DNA of 37,111 nucleotides from Escherichia phage T7. The translations under genes and the position numbers were made by a program. The stretch lies in sequence record MZ375256.1; one strand, written 5' to 3'. Shown one piece after another: positions 1-37,111 of the stretch; the stretch's first letter is position 1, and every line of letters begins with the position of its first letter. Below the pieces are notes generated by a model. It did no database searches, was not told the DNA's origin, and was given only the letters and a program-made list of their open reading frames with translations.

Positions 1-140
1 TCTCACAGTGTACGGACCTAAAGTTCCCCATAGGGGTACCTAAAGCCCAGCCAATCACCTAAAGTCAACCTTCGGTTGACCTTGAGGGTTCCCTAAGGGT
101 TTGTCTTTGGGTGTTACCTTGAGTGTCTCTCTGTGTCCCT
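1..140. repeat. Left direct terminal repeat (identical copy at 36972-37111)
   Basis: First 140 nt are repeated exactly at the last 140 nt of the window; T7-type terminal redundancy. Confidence 0.95.
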
Positions 141-154
141 ACCTGTAACAGTCT

Positions 155-318
155 CCTAAAGTATCCTCCTAAAGTCACCTCCTAACGTCCATCCTAAAGC
201 CAACACCTAAAGCCAACACCTAAAGACCCATCAAGTCAACGCCTATCTTAAAGTTTAAACATAAAGACCAGACCTAAAGACCAGACCTAAAGACACTACA
301 TAAAGACCAGACCTAAAG
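155..318. repeat. Array of short CCTAAAG-type repeats adjacent to the left terminal repeat
   Basis: Multiple spaced copies of cctaaag / acctaaag / ataaag visible between 155 and 318. Confidence 0.8.
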
Positions 319-367: not shown

Positions 368-390
368 TAATACAACTCACTATAGGGAGA
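368..390 (+). promoter_or_regulatory. T7 RNAP promoter phiOL
   Basis: taatacaactcactatagggaga, one mismatch to the 23-bp T7 consensus. Confidence 0.8.
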
Positions 391-2587: not shown

Positions 2588-5239
2588 ATGAACACGATTA
2601 ACATCGCTAAGAACGACTTCTCTGACATCGAACTGGCTGCTATCCCGTTCAACACTCTGGCTGACCATTACGGTGAGCGTTTAGCTCGCGAACAGTTGGC
2701 CCTTGAGCATGAGTCTTACGAGATGGGTGAAGCACGCTTCCGCAAGATGTTTGAGCGTCAACTTAAAGCTGGTGAGGTTGCGGATAACGCTGCCGCCAAG
2801 CCTCTCATCACTACCCTACTCCCTAAGATGATTGCACGCATCAACGACTGGTTTGAGGAAGTGAAAGCTAAGCGCGGCAAGCGCCCGACAGCCTTCCAGT
2901 TCCTGCAAGAAATCAAGCCGGAAGCCGTAGCGTACATCACCATTAAGACCACTCTGGCTTGCCTAACCAGTGCTGACAATACAACCGTTCAGGCTGTAGC
3001 AAGCGCAATCGGTCGGGCCATTGAGGACGAGGCTCGCTTCGGTCGTATCCGTGACCTTGAAGCTAAGCACTTCAAGAAAAACGTTGAGGAACAACTCAAC
3101 AAGCGCGTAGGGCACGTCTACAAGAAAGCATTTATGCGAGTTGTCGAGGCTGACATGCTCTCTAAGGGTCTACTCGGTGGCGAGGCGTGGTCTTCGTGGC
3201 ATAAGGAAGACTCTATTCATGTAGGAGTACGCTGCATCGAGATGCTCATTGAGTCAACCGGAATGGTTAGCTTACACCGCCAAAATGCTGGCGTAGTAGG
3301 TCAAGACTCTGAGACTATCGAACTCGCACCTGAATACGCTGAGGCTATCGCAACCCGTGCAGGTGCGCTGGCTGGCATCTCTCCGATGTTCCAACCTTGC
3401 GTAGTTCCTCCTAAGCCGTGGACTGGCATTACTGGTGGTGGCTATTGGGCTAACGGTCGTCGTCCTCTGGCGCTGGTGCGTACTCACAGTAAGAAAGCAC
3501 TGATGCGCTACGAAGACGTTTACATGCCTGAGGTGTACAAAGCGATTAACATTGCGCAAAACACCGCATGGAAAATCAACAAGAAAGTCCTAGCGGTCGC
3601 CAACGTAATCACCAAGTGGAAGCATTGTCCGGTCGAGGACATCCCTGCGATTGAGCGTGAAGAACTCCCGATGAAACCGGAAGACATCGACATGAATCCT
3701 GAGGCTCTCACCGCGTGGAAACGTGCTGCCGCTGCTGTGTACCGCAAGGACAAGGCTCGCAAGTCTCGCCGTATCAGCCTTGAGTTCATGCTTGAGCAAG
3801 CCAATAAGTTTGCTAACCATAAGGCCATCTGGTTCCCTTACAACATGGACTGGCGCGGTCGTGTTTACGCTGTGTCAATGTTCAACCCGCAAGGTAACGA
3901 TATGACCAAAGGACTGCTTACGCTGGCGAAAGGTAAACCAATCGGTAAGGAAGGTTACTACTGGCTGAAAATCCACGGTGCAAACTGTGCGGGTGTCGAT
4001 AAGGTTCCGTTCCCTGAGCGCATCAAGTTCATTGAGGAAAACCACGAGAACATCATGGCTTGCGCTAAGTCTCCACTGGAGAACACTTGGTGGGCTGAGC
4101 AAGATTCTCCGTTCTGCTTCCTTGCGTTCTGCTTTGAGTACGCTGGGGTACAGCACCACGGCCTGAGCTATAACTGCTCCCTTCCGCTGGCGTTTGACGG
4201 GTCTTGCTCTGGCATCCAGCACTTCTCCGCGATGCTCCGAGATGAGGTAGGTGGTCGCGCGGTTAACTTGCTTCCTAGTGAAACCGTTCAGGACATCTAC
4301 GGGATTGTTGCTAAGAAAGTCAACGAGATTCTACAAGCAGACGCAATCAATGGGACCGATAACGAAGTAGTTACCGTGACCGATGAGAACACTGGTGAAA
4401 TCTCTGAGAAAGTCAAGCTGGGCACTAAGGCACTGGCTGGTCAATGGCTGGCTTACGGTGTTACTCGCAGTGTGACTAAGCGTTCAGTCATGACGCTGGC
4501 TTACGGGTCCAAAGAGTTCGGCTTCCGTCAACAAGTGCTGGAAGATACCATTCAGCCAGCTATTGATTCCGGCAAGGGTCTGATGTTCACTCAGCCGAAT
4601 CAGGCTGCTGGATACATGGCTAAGCTGATTTGGGAATCTGTGAGCGTGACGGTGGTAGCTGCGGTTGAAGCAATGAACTGGCTTAAGTCTGCTGCTAAGC
4701 TGCTGGCTGCTGAGGTCAAAGATAAGAAGACTGGAGAGATTCTTCGCAAGCGTTGCGCTGTGCATTGGGTAACTCCTGATGGTTTCCCTGTGTGGCAGGA
4801 ATACAAGAAGCCTATTCAGACGCGCTTGAACCTGATGTTCCTCGGTCAGTTCCGCTTACAGCCTACCATTAACACCAACAAAGATAGCGAGATTGATGCA
4901 CACAAACAGGAGTCTGGTATCGCTCCTAACTTTGTACACAGCCAAGACGGTAGCCACCTTCGTAAGACTGTAGTGTGGGCACACGAGAAGTACGGAATCG
5001 AATCTTTTGCACTGATTCACGACTCCTTCGGTACCATTCCGGCTGACGCTGCGAACCTGTTCAAAGCAGTGCGCGAAACTATGGTTGACACATATGAGTC
5101 TTGTGATGTACTGGCTGATTTCTACGACCAGTTCGCTGACCAGTTGCACGAGTCTCAATTGGACAAAATGCCAGCACTTCCGGCTAAAGGTAACTTGAAC
5201 CTCCGTGACATCTTAGAGTCGGACTTCGCGTTCGCGTAA
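2588..5239 (+). CDS. 1: T7 DNA-directed RNA polymerase
   Basis: 883-aa ORF, recognisable as single-subunit T7 RNAP (starts MNTINIAKNDFSDIELAAIPFNTLADHYGERLAREQLALEHESYEMGEARFRKMFERQLK...). Confidence 0.98.
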   Translation: MNTINIAKNDFSDIELAAIPFNTLADHYGERLAREQLALEHESYEMGEARFRKMFERQLKAGEVADNAAAKPLITTLLPKMIARINDWFEEVKAKRGKRPTAFQFLQEIKPEAVAYITIKTTLACLTSADNTTVQAVASAIGRAIEDEARFGRIRDLEAKHFKKNVEEQLNKRVGHVYKKAFMRVVEADMLSKGLLGGEAWSSWHKEDSIHVGVRCIEMLIESTGMVSLHRQNAGVVGQDSETIELAPEYAEAIATRAGALAGISPMFQPCVVPPKPWTGITGGGYWANGRRPLALVRTHSKKALMRYEDVYMPEVYKAINIAQNTAWKINKKVLAVANVITKWKHCPVEDIPAIEREELPMKPEDIDMNPEALTAWKRAAAAVYRKDKARKSRRISLEFMLEQANKFANHKAIWFPYNMDWRGRVYAVSMFNPQGNDMTKGLLTLAKGKPIGKEGYYWLKIHGANCAGVDKVPFPERIKFIEENHENIMACAKSPLENTWWAEQDSPFCFLAFCFEYAGVQHHGLSYNCSLPLAFDGSCSGIQHFSAMLRDEVGGRAVNLLPSETVQDIYGIVAKKVNEILQADAINGTDNEVVTVTDENTGEISEKVKLGTKALAGQWLAYGVTRSVTKRSVMTLAYGSKEFGFRQQVLEDTIQPAIDSGKGLMFTQPNQAAGYMAKLIWESVSVTVVAAVEAMNWLKSAAKLLAAEVKDKKTGEILRKRCAVHWVTPDGFPVWQEYKKPIQTRLNLMFLGQFRLQPTINTNKDSEIDAHKQESGIAPNFVHSQDGSHLRKTVVWAHEKYGIESFALIHDSFGTIPADAANLFKAVRETMVDTYESCDVLADFYDQFADQLHESQLDKMPALPAKGNLNLRDILESDFAFA

Positions 5240-5322: not shown

Positions 5323-5345
5323 TAATACGACTCACTATAGGAGAA
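5323..5345 (+). promoter_or_regulatory. T7 promoter phi1.1B
   Basis: taatacgactcactataggagaa. Confidence 0.85.
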
Positions 5346-9117: not shown

Positions 9118-9537
9118 GTGGAACTGCGGGAGAAAATCCTTGAGCGAATCAAGGTGACTTCCTCTGGGTGTTGGGAGTGGCAGGGCGCTACGAACAATAA
9201 AGGGTACGGGCAGGTGTGGTGCAGCAATACCGGAAAGGTTGTCTACTGTCATCGCGTAATGTCTAATGCTCCGAAAGGTTCTACCGTCCTGCACTCCTGT
9301 GATAATCCATTATGTTGTAACCCTGAACACCGTTCCATAGGAACTCCAAAAGAGAACTCCACTGACATGGTAAATAAGGGTCGCTCACACAAGGGGTATA
9401 AACTTTCAGACGAAGACGTAATGGCAATCATGGAGTCCAGCGAGTCCAATGTATCCTTAGCTCGCACCTATGGTGTCTCCCAACAGACTATTTGTGATAT
9501 ACGCAAAGGGAGGCGACATGGCAGGTTACGGCGCTAA
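9118..9537 (+). CDS. 2.8: HNH endonuclease-family protein
   Basis: 139-aa ORF with GTG start; Cys/His motif CHRVMSN...HSCDNPLCCNPEH; clear paralog of the 17460-17852 ORF. Confidence 0.85.
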   Translation: MELREKILERIKVTSSGCWEWQGATNNKGYGQVWCSNTGKVVYCHRVMSNAPKGSTVLHSCDNPLCCNPEHRSIGTPKENSTDMVNKGRSHKGYKLSDEDVMAIMESSESNVSLARTYGVSQQTICDIRKGRRHGRLRR

Positions 9538-10422: not shown

Positions 10423-12234
<1,812 letters not shown>

Positions 12235-16139: not shown

Positions 16140-16162
16140 TAATACGACTCACTATAGGGAGA
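16140..16162 (+). promoter_or_regulatory. T7 promoter phi6.5 (class III consensus)
   Basis: taatacgactcactatagggaga; flanked by the R6.5 hairpin arms actcaaggtccc ... ggggcctttacgat. Confidence 0.9.
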
Positions 16163-17852: not shown

Positions 17853-19462
17853 TGGCTGAGAAACGAACAGGACTTGCGGAGGATGGCGCAAAGTCTGTCT
17901 ATGAGCGTTTAAAGAACGACCGTGCTCCCTATGAGACACGCGCTCAGAATTGCGCTCAATATACCATCCCATCATTGTTCCCTAAGGACTCCGATAACGC
18001 CTCTACAGATTATCAAACTCCGTGGCAAGCCGTGGGCGCTCGTGGTCTGAACAATCTAGCCTCTAAGCTCATGCTGGCTCTATTCCCTATGCAGACTTGG
18101 ATGCGACTTACTATATCTGAATATGAAGCAAAGCAGTTACTGAGCGACCCCGATGGACTCGCTAAGGTCGATGAGGGCCTCTCGATGGTAGAGCGTATCA
18201 TCATGAACTACATTGAGTCTAACAGTTACCGCGTGACTCTCTTTGAGGCTCTCAAACAGTTAGTCGTAGCTGGTAACGTCCTGCTGTACCTACCGGAACC
18301 GGAAGGGTCAAACTATAATCCCATGAAGCTGTACCGATTGTCTTCTTATGTGGTCCAACGAGACGCATTCGGCAACGTTCTGCAAATGGTGACTCGTGAC
18401 CAGATAGCTTTTGGTGCTCTCCCTGAGGACATCCGTAAGGCTGTAGAAGGTCAAGGTGGTGAGAAGAAAGCTGATGAGACAATCGACGTGTACACTCACA
18501 TCTATCTGGATGAGGACTCAGGTGAATACCTCCGATACGAAGAGGTCGAGGGTATGGAAGTCCAAGGCTCCGATGGGACTTATCCTAAAGAGGCTTGCCC
18601 ATACATCCCGATTCGGATGGTCAGACTAGATGGTGAATCCTACGGTCGTTCGTACATTGAGGAATACTTAGGTGACTTACGGTCCCTTGAAAATCTCCAA
18701 GAGGCTATCGTCAAGATGTCCATGATTAGCTCTAAGGTTATCGGCTTAGTGAATCCTGCTGGTATCACCCAGCCACGCCGACTGACCAAAGCTCAGACTG
18801 GTGACTTCGTTACTGGTCGTCCAGAAGACATCTCGTTCCTCCAACTGGAGAAGCAAGCAGACTTTACTGTAGCTAAAGCCGTAAGTGACGCTATCGAGGC
18901 TCGCCTTTCGTTTGCCTTTATGTTGAACTCTGCGGTTCAGCGTACAGGTGAACGTGTGACCGCCGAAGAGATTCGGTATGTAGCTTCTGAACTTGAAGAT
19001 ACTTTAGGTGGTGTCTACTCTATCCTTTCTCAAGAATTACAATTGCCTCTGGTACGAGTGCTCTTGAAGCAACTACAAGCCACGCAACAGATTCCTGAGT
19101 TACCTAAGGAAGCCGTAGAGCCAACCATTAGTACAGGTCTGGAAGCAATTGGTCGAGGACAAGACCTTGATAAGCTGGAGCGGTGTGTCACTGCGTGGGC
19201 TGCACTGGCACCTATGCGGGACGACCCTGATATTAACCTTGCGATGATTAAGTTACGTATTGCCAACGCTATCGGTATTGACACTTCTGGTATTCTACTC
19301 ACCGAAGAACAGAAGCAACAGAAGATGGCCCAACAGTCTATGCAAATGGGTATGGATAATGGTGCTGCTGCGCTGGCTCAAGGTATGGCTGCACAAGCTA
19401 CAGCTTCACCTGAGGCTATGGCTGCTGCCGCTGATTCCGTAGGTTTACAGCCGGGAATTTAA
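17852..19462 (+). CDS. 8: Portal (head-tail connector) protein
   Basis: 536-aa ORF from MAEKRTGLAEDGAK. Confidence 0.95.
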   Translation: MAEKRTGLAEDGAKSVYERLKNDRAPYETRAQNCAQYTIPSLFPKDSDNASTDYQTPWQAVGARGLNNLASKLMLALFPMQTWMRLTISEYEAKQLLSDPDGLAKVDEGLSMVERIIMNYIESNSYRVTLFEALKQLVVAGNVLLYLPEPEGSNYNPMKLYRLSSYVVQRDAFGNVLQMVTRDQIAFGALPEDIRKAVEGQGGEKKADETIDVYTHIYLDEDSGEYLRYEEVEGMEVQGSDGTYPKEACPYIPIRMVRLDGESYGRSYIEEYLGDLRSLENLQEAIVKMSMISSKVIGLVNPAGITQPRRLTKAQTGDFVTGRPEDISFLQLEKQADFTVAKAVSDAIEARLSFAFMLNSAVQRTGERVTAEEIRYVASELEDTLGGVYSILSQELQLPLVRVLLKQLQATQQIPELPKEAVEPTISTGLEAIGRGQDLDKLERCVTAWAALAPMRDDPDINLAMIKLRIANAIGIDTSGILLTEEQKQQKMAQQSMQMGMDNGAAALAQGMAAQATASPEAMAAAADSVGLQPGI

Positions 19463-19482
19463 TACGACTCACTATAGGGAGA
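19460..19482 (+). promoter_or_regulatory. T7 promoter phi9 (class III consensus)
   Basis: taatacgactcactatagggaga. Confidence 0.9.
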
Positions 19483-20498: not shown

Positions 20499-20521
20499 TA
20501 ATACGACTCACTATATGGAGA
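20499..20521 (+). promoter_or_regulatory. T7 promoter phi10 with non-consensus +1 (T instead of G)
   Basis: taatacgactcactataTggaga followed by the gene 10 leader accacaacggtttccctctagaaataattttgtttaactttaagaaggagatatacat. Confidence 0.85.
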
Positions 20522-20578
20522 CCACAACGGTTTCCCTCTAGAAATAATTTTGTTTAACTTTAAGAAGGAGATATACAT

Positions 20579-21616
20579 ATGGCTAGCATGACTGGTGGAC
20601 AGCAAATGGGTACTAACCAAGGTAAAGGTGTAGTTGCTGCTGGAGATAAACTGGCGTTGTTCTTGAAGGTATTTGGCGGTGAAGTCCTGACTGCGTTCGC
20701 TCGTACCTCCGTGACCACTTCTCGCCACATGGTACGTTCCATCTCCAGCGGTAAATCCGCTCAGTTCCCTGTTCTGGGTCGCACTCAGGCAGCGTATCTG
20801 GCTCCGGGCGAGAACCTCGACGATAAACGTAAGGACATCAAACACACCGAGAAGGTAATCACCATTGACGGTCTCCTGACGGCTGACGTTCTGATTTATG
20901 ATATTGAGGACGCGATGAACCACTACGACGTTCGCTCTGAGTATACCTCTCAGTTGGGTGAATCTCTGGCGATGGCTGCGGATGGTGCGGTTCTGGCTGA
21001 GATTGCCGGTCTGTGTAACGTGGAAAGCAAATATAATGAGAACATCGAGGGCTTAGGTACTGCTACCGTAATTGAGACCACTCAGAACAAGGCCGCACTT
21101 ACCGACCAAGTTGCGCTGGGTAAGGAGATTATTGCGGCTCTGACTAAGGCTCGTGCGGCTCTGACCAAGAACTATGTTCCGGCTGCTGACCGTGTGTTCT
21201 ACTGTGACCCAGATAGCTACTCTGCGATTCTGGCAGCACTGATGCCGAACGCAGCAAACTACGCTGCTCTGATTGACCCTGAGAAGGGTTCTATCCGCAA
21301 CGTTATGGGCTTTGAGGTTGTAGAAGTTCCGCACCTCACCGCTGGTGGTGCTGGTACCGCTCGTGAGGGCACTACTGGTCAGAAGCACGTCTTCCCTGCC
21401 AATAAAGGTGAGGGTAATGTCAAGGTTGCTAAGGACAACGTTATCGGCCTGTTCATGCACCGCTCTGCGGTAGGTACTGTTAAGCTGCGTGACTTGGCTC
21501 TGGAGCGCGCTCGCCGTGCTAACTTCCAAGCGGACCAGATTATCGCTAAGTACGCAATGGGCCACGGTGGTCTTCGCCCAGAAGCTGCTGGTGCAGTGGT
21601 TTTCAAAGTGGAGTAA
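20579..21616 (+). CDS. 10A: Major capsid protein 10A
   Basis: 345-aa ORF starting MASMTGGQQMG. Confidence 0.98.
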   Translation: MASMTGGQQMGTNQGKGVVAAGDKLALFLKVFGGEVLTAFARTSVTTSRHMVRSISSGKSAQFPVLGRTQAAYLAPGENLDDKRKDIKHTEKVITIDGLLTADVLIYDIEDAMNHYDVRSEYTSQLGESLAMAADGAVLAEIAGLCNVESKYNENIEGLGTATVIETTQNKAALTDQVALGKEIIAALTKARAALTKNYVPAADRVFYCDPDSYSAILAALMPNAANYAALIDPEKGSIRNVMGFEVVEVPHLTAGGAGTAREGTTGQKHVFPANKGEGNVKVAKDNVIGLFMHRSAVGTVKLRDLALERARRANFQADQIIAKYAMGHGGLRPEAAGAVVFKVE

Positions 21617-22453: not shown

Positions 22454-24838
22454 ATGGCACTCATTAGCCAATCAATCAAGAACTTGAAGGGTGGTATCAG
22501 CCAACAGCCTGACATCCTTCGTTATCCAGACCAAGGGTCACGCCAAGTTAACGGTTGGTCTTCGGAGACCGAGGGCCTCCAAAAGCGTCCACCTCTTGTT
22601 TTCTTAAATACACTTGGAGACAACGGTGCGTTAGGTCAAGCTCCGTACATCCACCTGATTAACCGAGATGAGCACGAACAGTATTACGCTGTGTTCACTG
22701 GTAGCGGAATCCGAGTGTTCGACCTTTCTGGTAACGAGAAGCAAGTTAGGTATCCTAACGGTTCCAACTACATCAAGACCGCTAATCCACGTAACGACCT
22801 GCGAATGGTTACTGTAGCAGACTATACGTTCATCGTTAACCGTAACGTTGTTGCACAGAAGAACACAAAGTCTGTCAACTTACCGAATTACAACCCTAAT
22901 CAAGACGGATTGATTAACGTTCGTGGTGGTCAGTATGGTAGGGAACTAATTGTACACATTAACGGTAAAGACGTTGCGAAGTATAAGATACCAGATGGTA
23001 GTCAACCTGAACACGTAAACAATACGGATGCCCAATGGTTAGCTGAAGAGTTAGCCAAGCAGATGCGCACTAACTTGTCTGATTGGACTGTAAATGTAGG
23101 GCAAGGGTTCATCCATGTGACCGCACCTAGTGGTCAACAGATTGACTCCTTCACGACTAAAGATGGCTACGCAGACCAGTTGATTAACCCTGTGACCCAC
23201 TACGCTCAGTCGTTCTCTAAGCTGCCACCTAATGCTCCTAACGGCTACATGGTGAAAATCGTAGGGGACGCCTCTAAGTCTGCCGACCAGTATTACGTTC
23301 GGTATGACGCTGAGCGGAAAGTTTGGACTGAGACTTTAGGTTGGAACACTGAGGACCAAGTTCTATGGGAAACCATGCCACACGCTCTTGTGCGAGCCGC
23401 TGACGGTAATTTCGACTTCAAGTGGCTTGAGTGGTCTCCTAAGTCTTGTGGTGACGTTGACACCAACCCTTGGCCTTCTTTTGTTGGTTCAAGTATTAAC
23501 GATGTGTTCTTCTTCCGTAACCGCTTAGGATTCCTTAGTGGGGAGAACATCATATTGAGTCGTACAGCCAAATACTTCAACTTCTACCCTGCGTCCATTG
23601 CGAACCTTAGTGATGACGACCCTATAGACGTAGCTGTGAGTACCAACCGAATAGCAATCCTTAAGTACGCCGTTCCGTTCTCAGAAGAGTTACTCATCTG
23701 GTCCGATGAAGCACAATTCGTCCTGACTGCCTCGGGTACTCTCACATCTAAGTCGGTTGAGTTGAACCTAACGACCCAGTTTGACGTACAGGACCGAGCG
23801 AGACCTTTTGGGATTGGGCGTAATGTCTACTTTGCTAGTCCGAGGTCCAGCTTCGCGTCCATCCACAGGTACTACGCTGTGCAGGATGTCAGTTCCGTTA
23901 AGAATGCTGAGGACATTACATCACACGTTCCTAACTACATCCCTAATGGTGTGTTCAGTATTTGCGGAAGTGGTACGGAAAACTTCTGTTCGGTACTATC
24001 TCACGGGGACCCTAGTAAAATCTTCATGTACAAATTCCTGTACCTGAACGAAGAGTTAAGGCAACAGTCGTGGTCTCATTGGGACTTTGGGGAAAACGTA
24101 CAGGTTCTAGCTTGTCAGAGTATCAGCTCAGATATGTATGTGATTCTTCGCAATGAGTTCAATACGTTCCTAGCTAGAATCTCTTTCACTAAGAACGCCA
24201 TTGACTTACAGGGAGAACCCTATCGTGCCTTTATGGACATGAAGATTCGATACACGATTCCTAGTGGAACATACAACGATGACACATTCACTACCTCTAT
24301 TCATATTCCAACAATTTATGGTGCAAACTTCGGGAGGGGCAAAATCACTGTATTGGAGCCTGATGGTAAGATAACCGTGTTTGAGCAACCTACGGCTGGG
24401 TGGAATAGCGACCCTTGGCTGAGACTCAGCGGTAACTTGGAGGGACGCATGGTGTACATTGGGTTCAACATTAACTTCGTATATGAGTTCTCTAAGTTCC
24501 TCATCAAGCAGACTGCCGACGACGGGTCTACCTCCACGGAAGACATTGGGCGCTTACAGTTACGCCGAGCGTGGGTTAACTACGAGAACTCTGGTACGTT
24601 TGACATTTATGTTGAGAACCAATCGTCTAACTGGAAGTACACAATGGCTGGTGCCCGATTAGGCTCTAACACTCTGAGGGCTGGGAGACTGAACTTAGGG
24701 ACCGGACAATATCGATTCCCTGTGGTTGGTAACGCCAAGTTCAACACTGTATACATCTTGTCAGATGAGACTACCCCTCTGAACATCATTGGGTGTGGCT
24801 GGGAAGGTAACTACTTACGGAGAAGTTCCGGTATTTAA
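22454..24838 (+). CDS. 12: Tail tubular protein B
   Basis: 794-aa ORF. Confidence 0.95.
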   Translation: MALISQSIKNLKGGISQQPDILRYPDQGSRQVNGWSSETEGLQKRPPLVFLNTLGDNGALGQAPYIHLINRDEHEQYYAVFTGSGIRVFDLSGNEKQVRYPNGSNYIKTANPRNDLRMVTVADYTFIVNRNVVAQKNTKSVNLPNYNPNQDGLINVRGGQYGRELIVHINGKDVAKYKIPDGSQPEHVNNTDAQWLAEELAKQMRTNLSDWTVNVGQGFIHVTAPSGQQIDSFTTKDGYADQLINPVTHYAQSFSKLPPNAPNGYMVKIVGDASKSADQYYVRYDAERKVWTETLGWNTEDQVLWETMPHALVRAADGNFDFKWLEWSPKSCGDVDTNPWPSFVGSSINDVFFFRNRLGFLSGENIILSRTAKYFNFYPASIANLSDDDPIDVAVSTNRIAILKYAVPFSEELLIWSDEAQFVLTASGTLTSKSVELNLTTQFDVQDRARPFGIGRNVYFASPRSSFASIHRYYAVQDVSSVKNAEDITSHVPNYIPNGVFSICGSGTENFCSVLSHGDPSKIFMYKFLYLNEELRQQSWSHWDFGENVQVLACQSISSDMYVILRNEFNTFLARISFTKNAIDLQGEPYRAFMDMKIRYTIPSGTYNDDTFTTSIHIPTIYGANFGRGKITVLEPDGKITVFEQPTAGWNSDPWLRLSGNLEGRMVYIGFNINFVYEFSKFLIKQTADDGSTSTEDIGRLQLRRAWVNYENSGTFDIYVENQSSNWKYTMAGARLGSNTLRAGRLNLGTGQYRFPVVGNAKFNTVYILSDETTPLNIIGCGWEGNYLRRSSGI

Positions 24839-34528: not shown

Positions 34529-34786
34529 ATGCTAGAATTTTTACGTAAGCTAATCCCTTGGGTTCTCGCTGGGATGCTATTCGGGTTAGGATGGCATCTA
34601 GGGTCAGACTCAATGGACGCTAAATGGAAACAGGAGGTACACAATGAGTACGTTAAGAGAGTTGAGCCCAGAAGGGTGACGCATGGATTCGTGCGTTACA
34701 GGATACTATTCGTGAACTGCAACGTAAGTAGGAAATCAAGTAAGGAGGCAATGTGTCTACTCAATCCAATCGTAATGCGCTCGTAG
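34529..34786 (+). pseudogene. 18.5: Truncated and frameshifted i-spanin gene 18.5 (Rz-like); embedded o-spanin gene 18.7 (Rz1-like) reduced to an 11-codon stub at 34644-34679
   Basis: First 46 codons MLEFLRKLIPWVLAGMLFGLGWHLGSDSMDAKWKQEVHNEYVKRVE match gp18.5, then an out-of-frame tail PRRVTHGFVRYRILF... running into gene 19; about 229 bp missing relative to the canonical 143-aa gene. Confidence 0.75.
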
Positions 34787-36971: not shown

Positions 36972-37111
36972 TCTCACAGTGTACGGACCTAAAGTTCCCC
37001 ATAGGGGTACCTAAAGCCCAGCCAATCACCTAAAGTCAACCTTCGGTTGACCTTGAGGGTTCCCTAAGGGTTTGTCTTTGGGTGTTACCTTGAGTGTCTC
37101 TCTGTGTCCCT
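36972..37111. repeat. Right direct terminal repeat (identical to 1-140)
   Basis: Exact 140-nt match to the window start. Confidence 0.95.

Follow-up and report, generated by a model that had tools for sequence, protein, structure and literature searches.

A G>T change at position +1 of the phi10 capsid promoter in a serially passaged, genome-reduced bacteriophage T7

The window analysed here, a 37,111-nt stretch of phage T7 DNA (record MZ375256.1), carries between genes 9 and 10 the phi10 promoter, the textbook strong promoter that is the basis of pET expression and whose GGG start is, to our knowledge, treated as invariant. In the window, positions 20499-20521 read TAATACGACTCACTATA-T-GGAGA. 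The features on which the analysis turns are listed below in window coordinates, all of them on the plus strand.

368..390, plus strand: phiOL promoter, with a +1 A>G change at window 385; AGGAGA thereby becomes the consensus GGGAGA, so that phiOL and phi10 changed in opposite directions
2588..5239, plus strand: gene 1, T7 RNA polymerase, with Q184R at window 3138; it reads these promoters and evolves in the same lines
19460..19482, plus strand: phi9 promoter, wild type in the window; its read-through covers gene 10 and would buffer a weak phi10 (Paff et al., 2018)
20499..20521, plus strand: phi10 class III promoter, -17 to +6, with a perfect -17 to -1 consensus and TGGAGA for GGGAGA; aligns to NC_001604 nt 22887-22909
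20516, plus strand: G>T mutation at phi10 +1 (T7 nt 22904), the base specifying the initiating nucleotide; the same allele occurs in 33 other isolates and in T7_250L
20517..20518, plus strand: GG at +2/+3, the predicted new initiation dinucleotide, which would place the transcript start one base downstream (PMC3950665)
20516..20578, plus strand: gene 10 leader, with a 5' hairpin (20516-20536) that is without its terminal G-C pair and an unchanged ribosome-binding site
20579..21616, plus strand: gene 10A, major capsid protein, directly served by phi10 (coordinates as annotated in T7_240S)

A 17-mer scan of the window returned 14 T7-type promoters, against 0.11 expected by chance. GGGAGA follows each of the perfect 17-mers at 16140 (phi6.5), 19460 (phi9), 24869 (phi13), 32161 (phi17) and 36595 (phiOR), and GGAGAA follows another at 5323 (phi1.1B, class II). 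The phi10 copy matches the TAATACGACTCACTATA consensus exactly from -17 to -1 (window 20499-20515) and lies in the interval between genes 9 and 10, ahead of the gene 10 leader and ribosome-binding site, but it continues with TGGAGA; in sequence and position, phi10 here has the defining features of a class III promoter except the +1 G. When the window was aligned to V01146/NC_001604, position 20516 fell on nt 22904, the annotated phi10 start, where the reference base is G, and the T of the window is therefore a derived G>T change at +1. The scan and the alignment both agree with an earlier note on this DNA, which had pointed to T at phi10 +1 against G at the other class III promoters. The site is intergenic, with the end of gene 9 lying 31 nt upstream, and no coding sequence is affected. 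Two candidate effects were rejected: a coding-sequence effect of the T, since the site sits between genes 9 and 10, and the creation of a new sigma-70 promoter or terminator, none of which was found.

The window is a genome-reduced, CRISPR-streamlined and serially passaged T7 that has lost ~2.8 kb relative to wild type. Its nearest relatives are GenBank records MZ375233-294, entitled 'Mutant Escherichia phage T7 clone T7_<transfer>L/S', and the MZ3752xx series comes from the CiPGr experiment (Yuan et al., NAR 2022; PMC9825161). In that experiment, T7 was passaged 300 times on E. coli MG1655 with Cas9, lambda-Red and a guide/repair library against non-essential genes. At intervals of 10 transfers, an isolate with large plaques and one with small plaques were taken for sequencing, with de novo assembly of the short reads, and population metagenomes were sampled at the same interval; the killing ability of the phage fell as transfers accumulated (PMC9825161). 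Point mutations were treated in aggregate by Yuan et al. (2022; PMC9825161), and promoters were left undiscussed. We called variants in 23 genomes of this study against T7_10L, a comparison reference that is essentially wild type and whose numbering corresponds to NC_001604 minus 1 before ~nt 577 and plus 1 after ~2 kb. Compared to T7_10L, the window is missing genes 0.4-0.6, 1.4, 3.8, 4.3-4.7, 5.3 and 19.5 and carries ~20 substitutions. The same deletions (0.4-0.6, 1.4, 3.8, 4.3-4.7, 5.3 and 19.5) are present in the MZ3752xx isolates, which places the window in the CiPGr lineage, and SNPs at 3722, 19572, 19608, 19807, 34068 and 34173 are common to the window and these isolates. Accession number order tracks transfer number in MZ375233-294 (verified on 21 records), and going by this order the window (MZ375256) is most likely clone T7_120S; its haplotype is compatible with transfers ~120-170. 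The earlier note had allowed that the change was adaptive or compensatory and that the strain had been evolved or streamlined, and on the second point the origin from the MZ3752xx series bears it out.

Several other differences from T7_10L were observed in the window. A 226-bp deletion in genes 18.5/18.7 (T7_10L 37056-37281; window ~34663-34666), with one added G at the junction, and the gene 19 change N31T (window 34844) occur in the window only, among the 23 genomes compared. The terminal repeats (window 1-160 and 36973-37111) each show two single-base deletions; the left repeat is additionally without 18 bp (after window 96), and in the right repeat a 13-bp gap (T7_10L 39882-39894) lies just beyond the end of the alignment (window 37072). 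These terminal-repeat differences may be real or may be assembly effects at the genome ends. Gene 5, encoding T7 DNA polymerase, carries S100F in its N-terminal region (window 12601), which might affect proofreading and in that way add to the many point mutations of these lines, and K404T (window 13513); gene 7.3 carries T13P, R25S and H91R within 236 bp (window 17183, 17219 and 17418), and gene 16 carries G809S, K1158R and A1193V (window 30631, 31679 and 31784). All of the gene 7.3 changes, together with K1158R and A1193V, are shared by all isolates sampled at or after transfer 100, and G809S (33020) is missing from several late isolates. The coding substitutions of the window are all non-synonymous, which suggests that the adsorption and ejection proteins are adapting to the K-12 host.

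A 69-nt query centred on the T gave exact matches in 33 records, all of them from the CiPGr series and each separately isolated and assembled; in addition, T7_250L carries the +1 T together with a second phi10 change, -11 G>A. The T was found in none of 22 isolates from transfers 10-110, in 8 of the 11 from transfers 120-170 (9 of 12 when the window is counted) and in 25 of the 26 from transfers 180-300. The comparison with other T7 isolates that the earlier note had proposed shows the T to be confined to the CiPGr series: all T7 records outside it have G at phi10 +1, and none has T. Among 108 IMG/VR matches to ACGACTCACTATA-N-GGAGA, the variable base was G in 106, A in 2 (both phiOL-like) and T in none, and exact scans for the T variant in IMG/VR, JGI metagenomes and GTDB genomes gave no T7-like match. 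These scans returned 4 matches to two non-T7 sequences, approximately the number expected by chance for a 19-mer. The 19-mer, ACGACTCACTATATGGAGA, was found in two sequences, one common to a Nanoarchaeia MAG and a JGI contig, the other to a Clostridia MAG and a Spirochaetaceae MAG; the records of each pair are unrelated and are identical over ~79 nt. These matches, which have no further T7-like promoter nearby, probably reflect chance or a shared contaminant. A literature search for a mutation at T7 nt 22904 returned nothing relevant.

The earlier note had also allowed for a sequencing error, and the genomes were indeed assembled de novo from short reads across a 23-bp promoter that is repeated six times. 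Against such a sequencing or assembly artefact, the T recurs in 34 other CiPGr isolates with a clean and coherent time course, and the G and T alleles are found together at the same transfers; moreover, the T is absent from every other copy of the promoter, which leaves no source for mis-assembly. We thus hold an artefact to be extremely improbable, and T at phi10 +1 is almost certainly a real evolved mutation.

As to the expected effect of the change, T7 RNA polymerase requires GTP and prefers GG at initiation (PMC3950665), the initiating guanine is recognised through specific contacts (PMC11617373), and replacement of the +1 G by A, U or C yields heterogeneous 5' ends (PMC3683919). In the barcode library of Komura et al. 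(2018; PMC5937735 supplement), the wild-type promoter gave an RNA/DNA ratio of 153-188 (100%), the +1 G>A variant gave 68 (~38% of wild type), and the -6 A>G variant gave 46-49 (~27% of wild type). The +1 G>T variant gave 13.8 (~8% of wild type), a figure that comes from one barcode, in vitro, in a construct with A at +3, where the promoter studied here (phi10-T) has G. The G at +3 may support better initiation at +2 than in the Komura construct. The earlier note had expected a +1 change to weaken initiation and to perturb the 5' end, in agreement with the literature (PMC3950665, PMC3683919, PMC5937735), and on these published measurements the T likely weakens phi10. The template would specify U at +1, which T7 RNA polymerase should use poorly, so that initiation would fall and most starts would probably go to the GG at +2/+3. 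Given GG at +2/+3 of phi10-T, where the Komura construct has A at +3, weaker initiation from +2 is the most likely outcome. The gene 10 mRNA would then be shortened by one base. Its 5' hairpin is predicted to go from 8 bp to 7 bp, with a minimum free energy of -16.1 kcal/mol for the wild-type leader and -12.4 kcal/mol for the mutant leader, the latter value holding for a start at +1 or at +2. A disruption of the leader structure was considered and rejected, since the 5' hairpin is shortened by a single terminal pair.

Paff et al. (2018; PMC6068830) found that knockout of phi10 did not significantly lower fitness (P = 0.075), that the drop in 10A RNA on knockout of phi9 was about equal to the drop on knockout of phi10, and that the double knockout of phi9 and phi10 reduced 10A RNA by 84-86%. 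The phage would tolerate phi10-T thanks to transcripts that reach gene 10 from phi9 and from promoters further upstream. On our preferred reading, which we judge to be probable, phi10 was weakened and its start moved to +2, a change that the phage tolerates and that was probably selected, set within a wider retuning of promoters and polymerase. The G>T transversion at T7 nt 22904 would have arisen during the CiPGr passages on MG1655 carrying the Cas9 and lambda-Red plasmids. As the T went from undetected to near fixation, lower transcription of the capsid and scaffold genes would probably have been favoured, or at least not penalised, and the T would be one among alternative T7 promoter and T7 RNA polymerase changes in these lines.

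The near-neutrality of the phi10 knockout (PMC6068830) would also suit a neutral or slightly deleterious passenger, that is, a chance G>T, perhaps favoured by the exposure of the oxidation-prone GGG when the open complex forms, which rose by drift or by hitchhiking in Cas9-escape sweeps and was buffered by phi9 read-through. G>T and C>A changes are frequent in the CiPGr lines (31 of 131 sites; the isolate T7_1t2 is especially rich in G>T), and the rise of the T coincides with an escape double substitution in gene 2.8 and the deletion of gene 3.8, as hitchhiking would have it. However, a linked driver was not seen. The T is found together with differing sets of deletions and SNPs, its best r2 with any other variant is 0.47, and all four gametes are present with markers on either side of it, down to 62 bp; the low r2 and the four-gamete violations indicate recombination rather than a linked driver. 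The occurrence of the T on several deletion backgrounds also leaves the earlier note's 'compensatory' unsupported, if taken to refer to one particular deletion.

The isolates that kept G are also informative. From transfer 120 onward there are four of them, and all have another change in the expression signals of genes 9 and 10: 140L, 150L and 170L carry phi9 -6 A>G, and 170L and 220S carry T>C at the base preceding the gene 10 ATG. Thus, no sampled isolate at or beyond transfer 120 has fully wild-type gene 9/10 signals, which argues against a mere passenger. In the whole collection, phi9 -6G was present in six records and never together with phi10 +1 T. The ATG-1 T>C change (T7 nt 22966; CATATG to CACATG) was likewise present in six records, including 170L, 220S and T7_250L, and is possibly a tuning of capsid-gene translation initiation. 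T7_1t2 (OL964749), which belongs to the separate cassette-100 library, has a different set of 100-bp deletions and appears to be the 'optimal' T7_100_t2 of Yuan et al., carries phi10 +2 G>T, TATAGTGAGA (T7_10L 22906), and phi13 +6 A>C (T7_10L 27280). Further evidence against a passenger is that phi10 was hit at +1, +2 and -11, whereas five promoters with the identical 23 bp never gained G>T at +1 or +2.

Promoters also collected more substitutions than the rest of the genome. The 391 bp of the 17 T7 promoters hold 11 out of the 168 distinct sites at which substitutions occurred, or 28/kb, a density 3-fold above the 8.9/kb of other non-coding DNA (Fisher P = 0.003) and above the 3.7/kb of coding DNA (binomial P = 1e-6); this excess over other non-coding DNA, too, is not what a passenger predicts. 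The pattern by which positive selection was judged here, parallel hits and the lack of a linked driver, was found: phi10 was hit at +1, -11 and +2, alternative alleles occur at phi9 -6 and ATG-1, and no variant tracks the T.

Some of the isolates point the other way. T7_5t1-3, the three fastest killers on a plasmid-free host, from pooled cassette-gene populations, have G at phi10 +1, as a passenger would allow; they carry phi9 -6G and/or ATG-1 C, and their smaller deletion load confounds the comparison. Two of the three cassette-100 isolates, T7_1t1 and T7_1t3, are wild type at phi9, phi10 and phi13, so a change at these promoters is not obligatory. The cassette-gene and cassette-100 libraries have some SNPs in common, which makes their independence incomplete. 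Fitness and killing ability fell across the transfers, a further point in favour of a passenger; since killing ability fell, rising alleles need not be beneficial. Taken together, the sequence patterns make positive selection of the phi10 +1 T somewhat better than an even prospect, and we regard a passenger, the main rival, as rather unlikely. Of the earlier note's 'adaptive', it is the pattern that finds support, in the parallel hits, the lack of a hitchhiking partner and the enrichment of changes in promoters.

Selection could also have come from Cas9 itself. Three protospacers cover the site, two being the promoter repeat itself and the third being TCACTATAGGGAGACCACAA followed by CGG. The T would allow escape from a designed or off-target guide by destroying the AGG PAM at window 20515-20517 or by placing a mismatch 12 nt from the CGG PAM in TCACTATAGGGAGACCACAA, and both footprints are present. 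In the source study, 23.5% of T7 point mutations lay in spacer or PAM regions (Yuan et al., 2022; PMC9825161), and escape-type changes are found 2-7 nt from PAMs in gene 2.8 (10072-73) and in gene 3.8 (11392 C>A, 2 nt from a TGG PAM). However, proximity weighs little, as most bases of the genome lie near some NGG, and known essential genes were left out of the guide design (PMC9825161), with phi10 located between the essential genes 9 and 10. The protospacer with the AGG PAM is identical at phi6.5, phi13 and phiOR, which are unchanged, and the overlapping GGG PAM becomes TGG, which is still a PAM. TCACTATAGGGAGACCACAA has a near-twin protospacer with 2 mismatches at phi3.8, which would favour escape, but this twin lies outside the deleted segment of gene 3.8, for which the working spacer is apparently 11374-11393. 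Furthermore, the AGG PAM that is lost through phi10 +1 G>T is gained at phiOL through its +1 A>G change. These results make Cas9 escape at phi10 very improbable. The gene 2.8 change TA>GT (L72R; window 9332-9333) lies 6-7 nt upstream of an AGG PAM and has the appearance of seed escape from Cas9, gene 2.8 being non-essential and targeted.

To return to a tolerated, probably selected weakening of phi10, other T7 promoters changed in the same lines. In NC_001604, phiOL +1 is A (nt 405), directly after TATA; the earlier note's survey of the promoters was right about phi10 and missed this one, which is G here (window 385). The phiOL +1 A>G change is first seen at transfer 30 (MZ375237), and every isolate sampled at transfer 100 or later has it; the in vitro value of Komura et al. 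for +1 A (~38% of G) suggests that it is an up-mutation. In some sister isolates, phiOL -11 A>G makes phiOL a perfect class III promoter. The reverse change, -11 G>A, was detected at four class III promoters (phi10, phi9, phi13 and phiOR); the isolates concerned in these -11 changes are T7_250L, T7_300L.2, 130L, 200S, 220S and T7_5t1, and in 130L and T7_5t1, -11 G>A and phiOL -11 A>G occur together. The recurrent exchange of G and A at -11 is possibly due to gene conversion between promoter copies or to parallel selection. A further promoter change in the genomes of the study is phi1.1A -17 C>T.

The polymerase itself also changed. Q184R occurs in T7_1t2 and in all isolates sampled at or after transfer 100, and later isolates carry the further T7 RNA polymerase changes V137A, R96C (in the AT-rich recognition loop), E245G, P862S and W797L; the promoter-binding domain of the polymerase is evolving alongside the promoters. 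We tentatively propose, as a reading that falls somewhat short of even odds, that under long passage and genome reduction selection repeatedly dimmed the strongest late promoters (phi10 +1/+2 G>T, phi9 -6 A>G, and -11 G>A at phi9, phi10, phi13 and phiOR) and raised phiOL (+1 A>G and -11 A>G), together with changes in the promoter-binding N-terminal domain of the polymerase (Q184R, V137A, R96C and E245G). On the same tentative reading, wild-type capsid transcription would lie above its optimum under these conditions, promoters and polymerase would co-evolve as a unit, and a +1 pyrimidine would be a workable natural dimmer of a T7 promoter in vivo.

A pyrimidine at phi10 +1 has thus come near fixation in a replicating phage, a result left unexploited within public data, with the source paper silent on promoters. 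If the T was selected, maximal capsid transcription would not be optimal for T7 in every setting and promoter strength would be an evolvable dial in streamlined phages, which would bear on the design of refactored or minimal phages, on attenuation by promoter ablation and on models of T7 gene expression. If it is a tolerated passenger, it would be a minor footnote on how well phi9 read-through buffers phi10.

Compared to phi10 of wild-type T7 (nt 22904), the promoter of the window is identical from -17 to -1 and from +2 to +6, as are the leader, the ribosome-binding site and gene 10; it differs by T for G at +1, by which the GGG initiation triplet is cut to GG at +2/+3. With wild-type phiOL (TAATACAACTCACTATA-A-GGAGA, nt 405), the only natural T7 promoter of N-GGAGA form with a non-G +1, it has this layout in common. 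The +1 base of phiOL is the purine A, which the polymerase can use, whereas that of phi10-T is a pyrimidine, and phiOL evolved towards G here. Variants of the T7 promoter with +1 substitutions were reportedly studied in vitro by Imburgio et al. in 2000. The in vitro variants of Komura et al. (2018) include the identical +1 G>T, but on synthetic templates, whereas here it is found in a replicating phage. The phi9 and phi10 knockouts of Paff et al. (2018) are deliberate attenuating replacements of 18-23 bp, whereas here a spontaneous single-base change rose in frequency, so that evolution ran the other way; by analogy, phi10-T should have part of the functional effect of the engineered phi10 knockout. 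The phi10 +2 G>T of T7_1t2, phi9 -6 A>G and ATG-1 T>C are also spontaneous changes in the gene 9/10 signals, at different positions. What is new in the present case is that a +1 variant arose and spread in vivo, with parallel hits; the variant was already in public records, uninterpreted.
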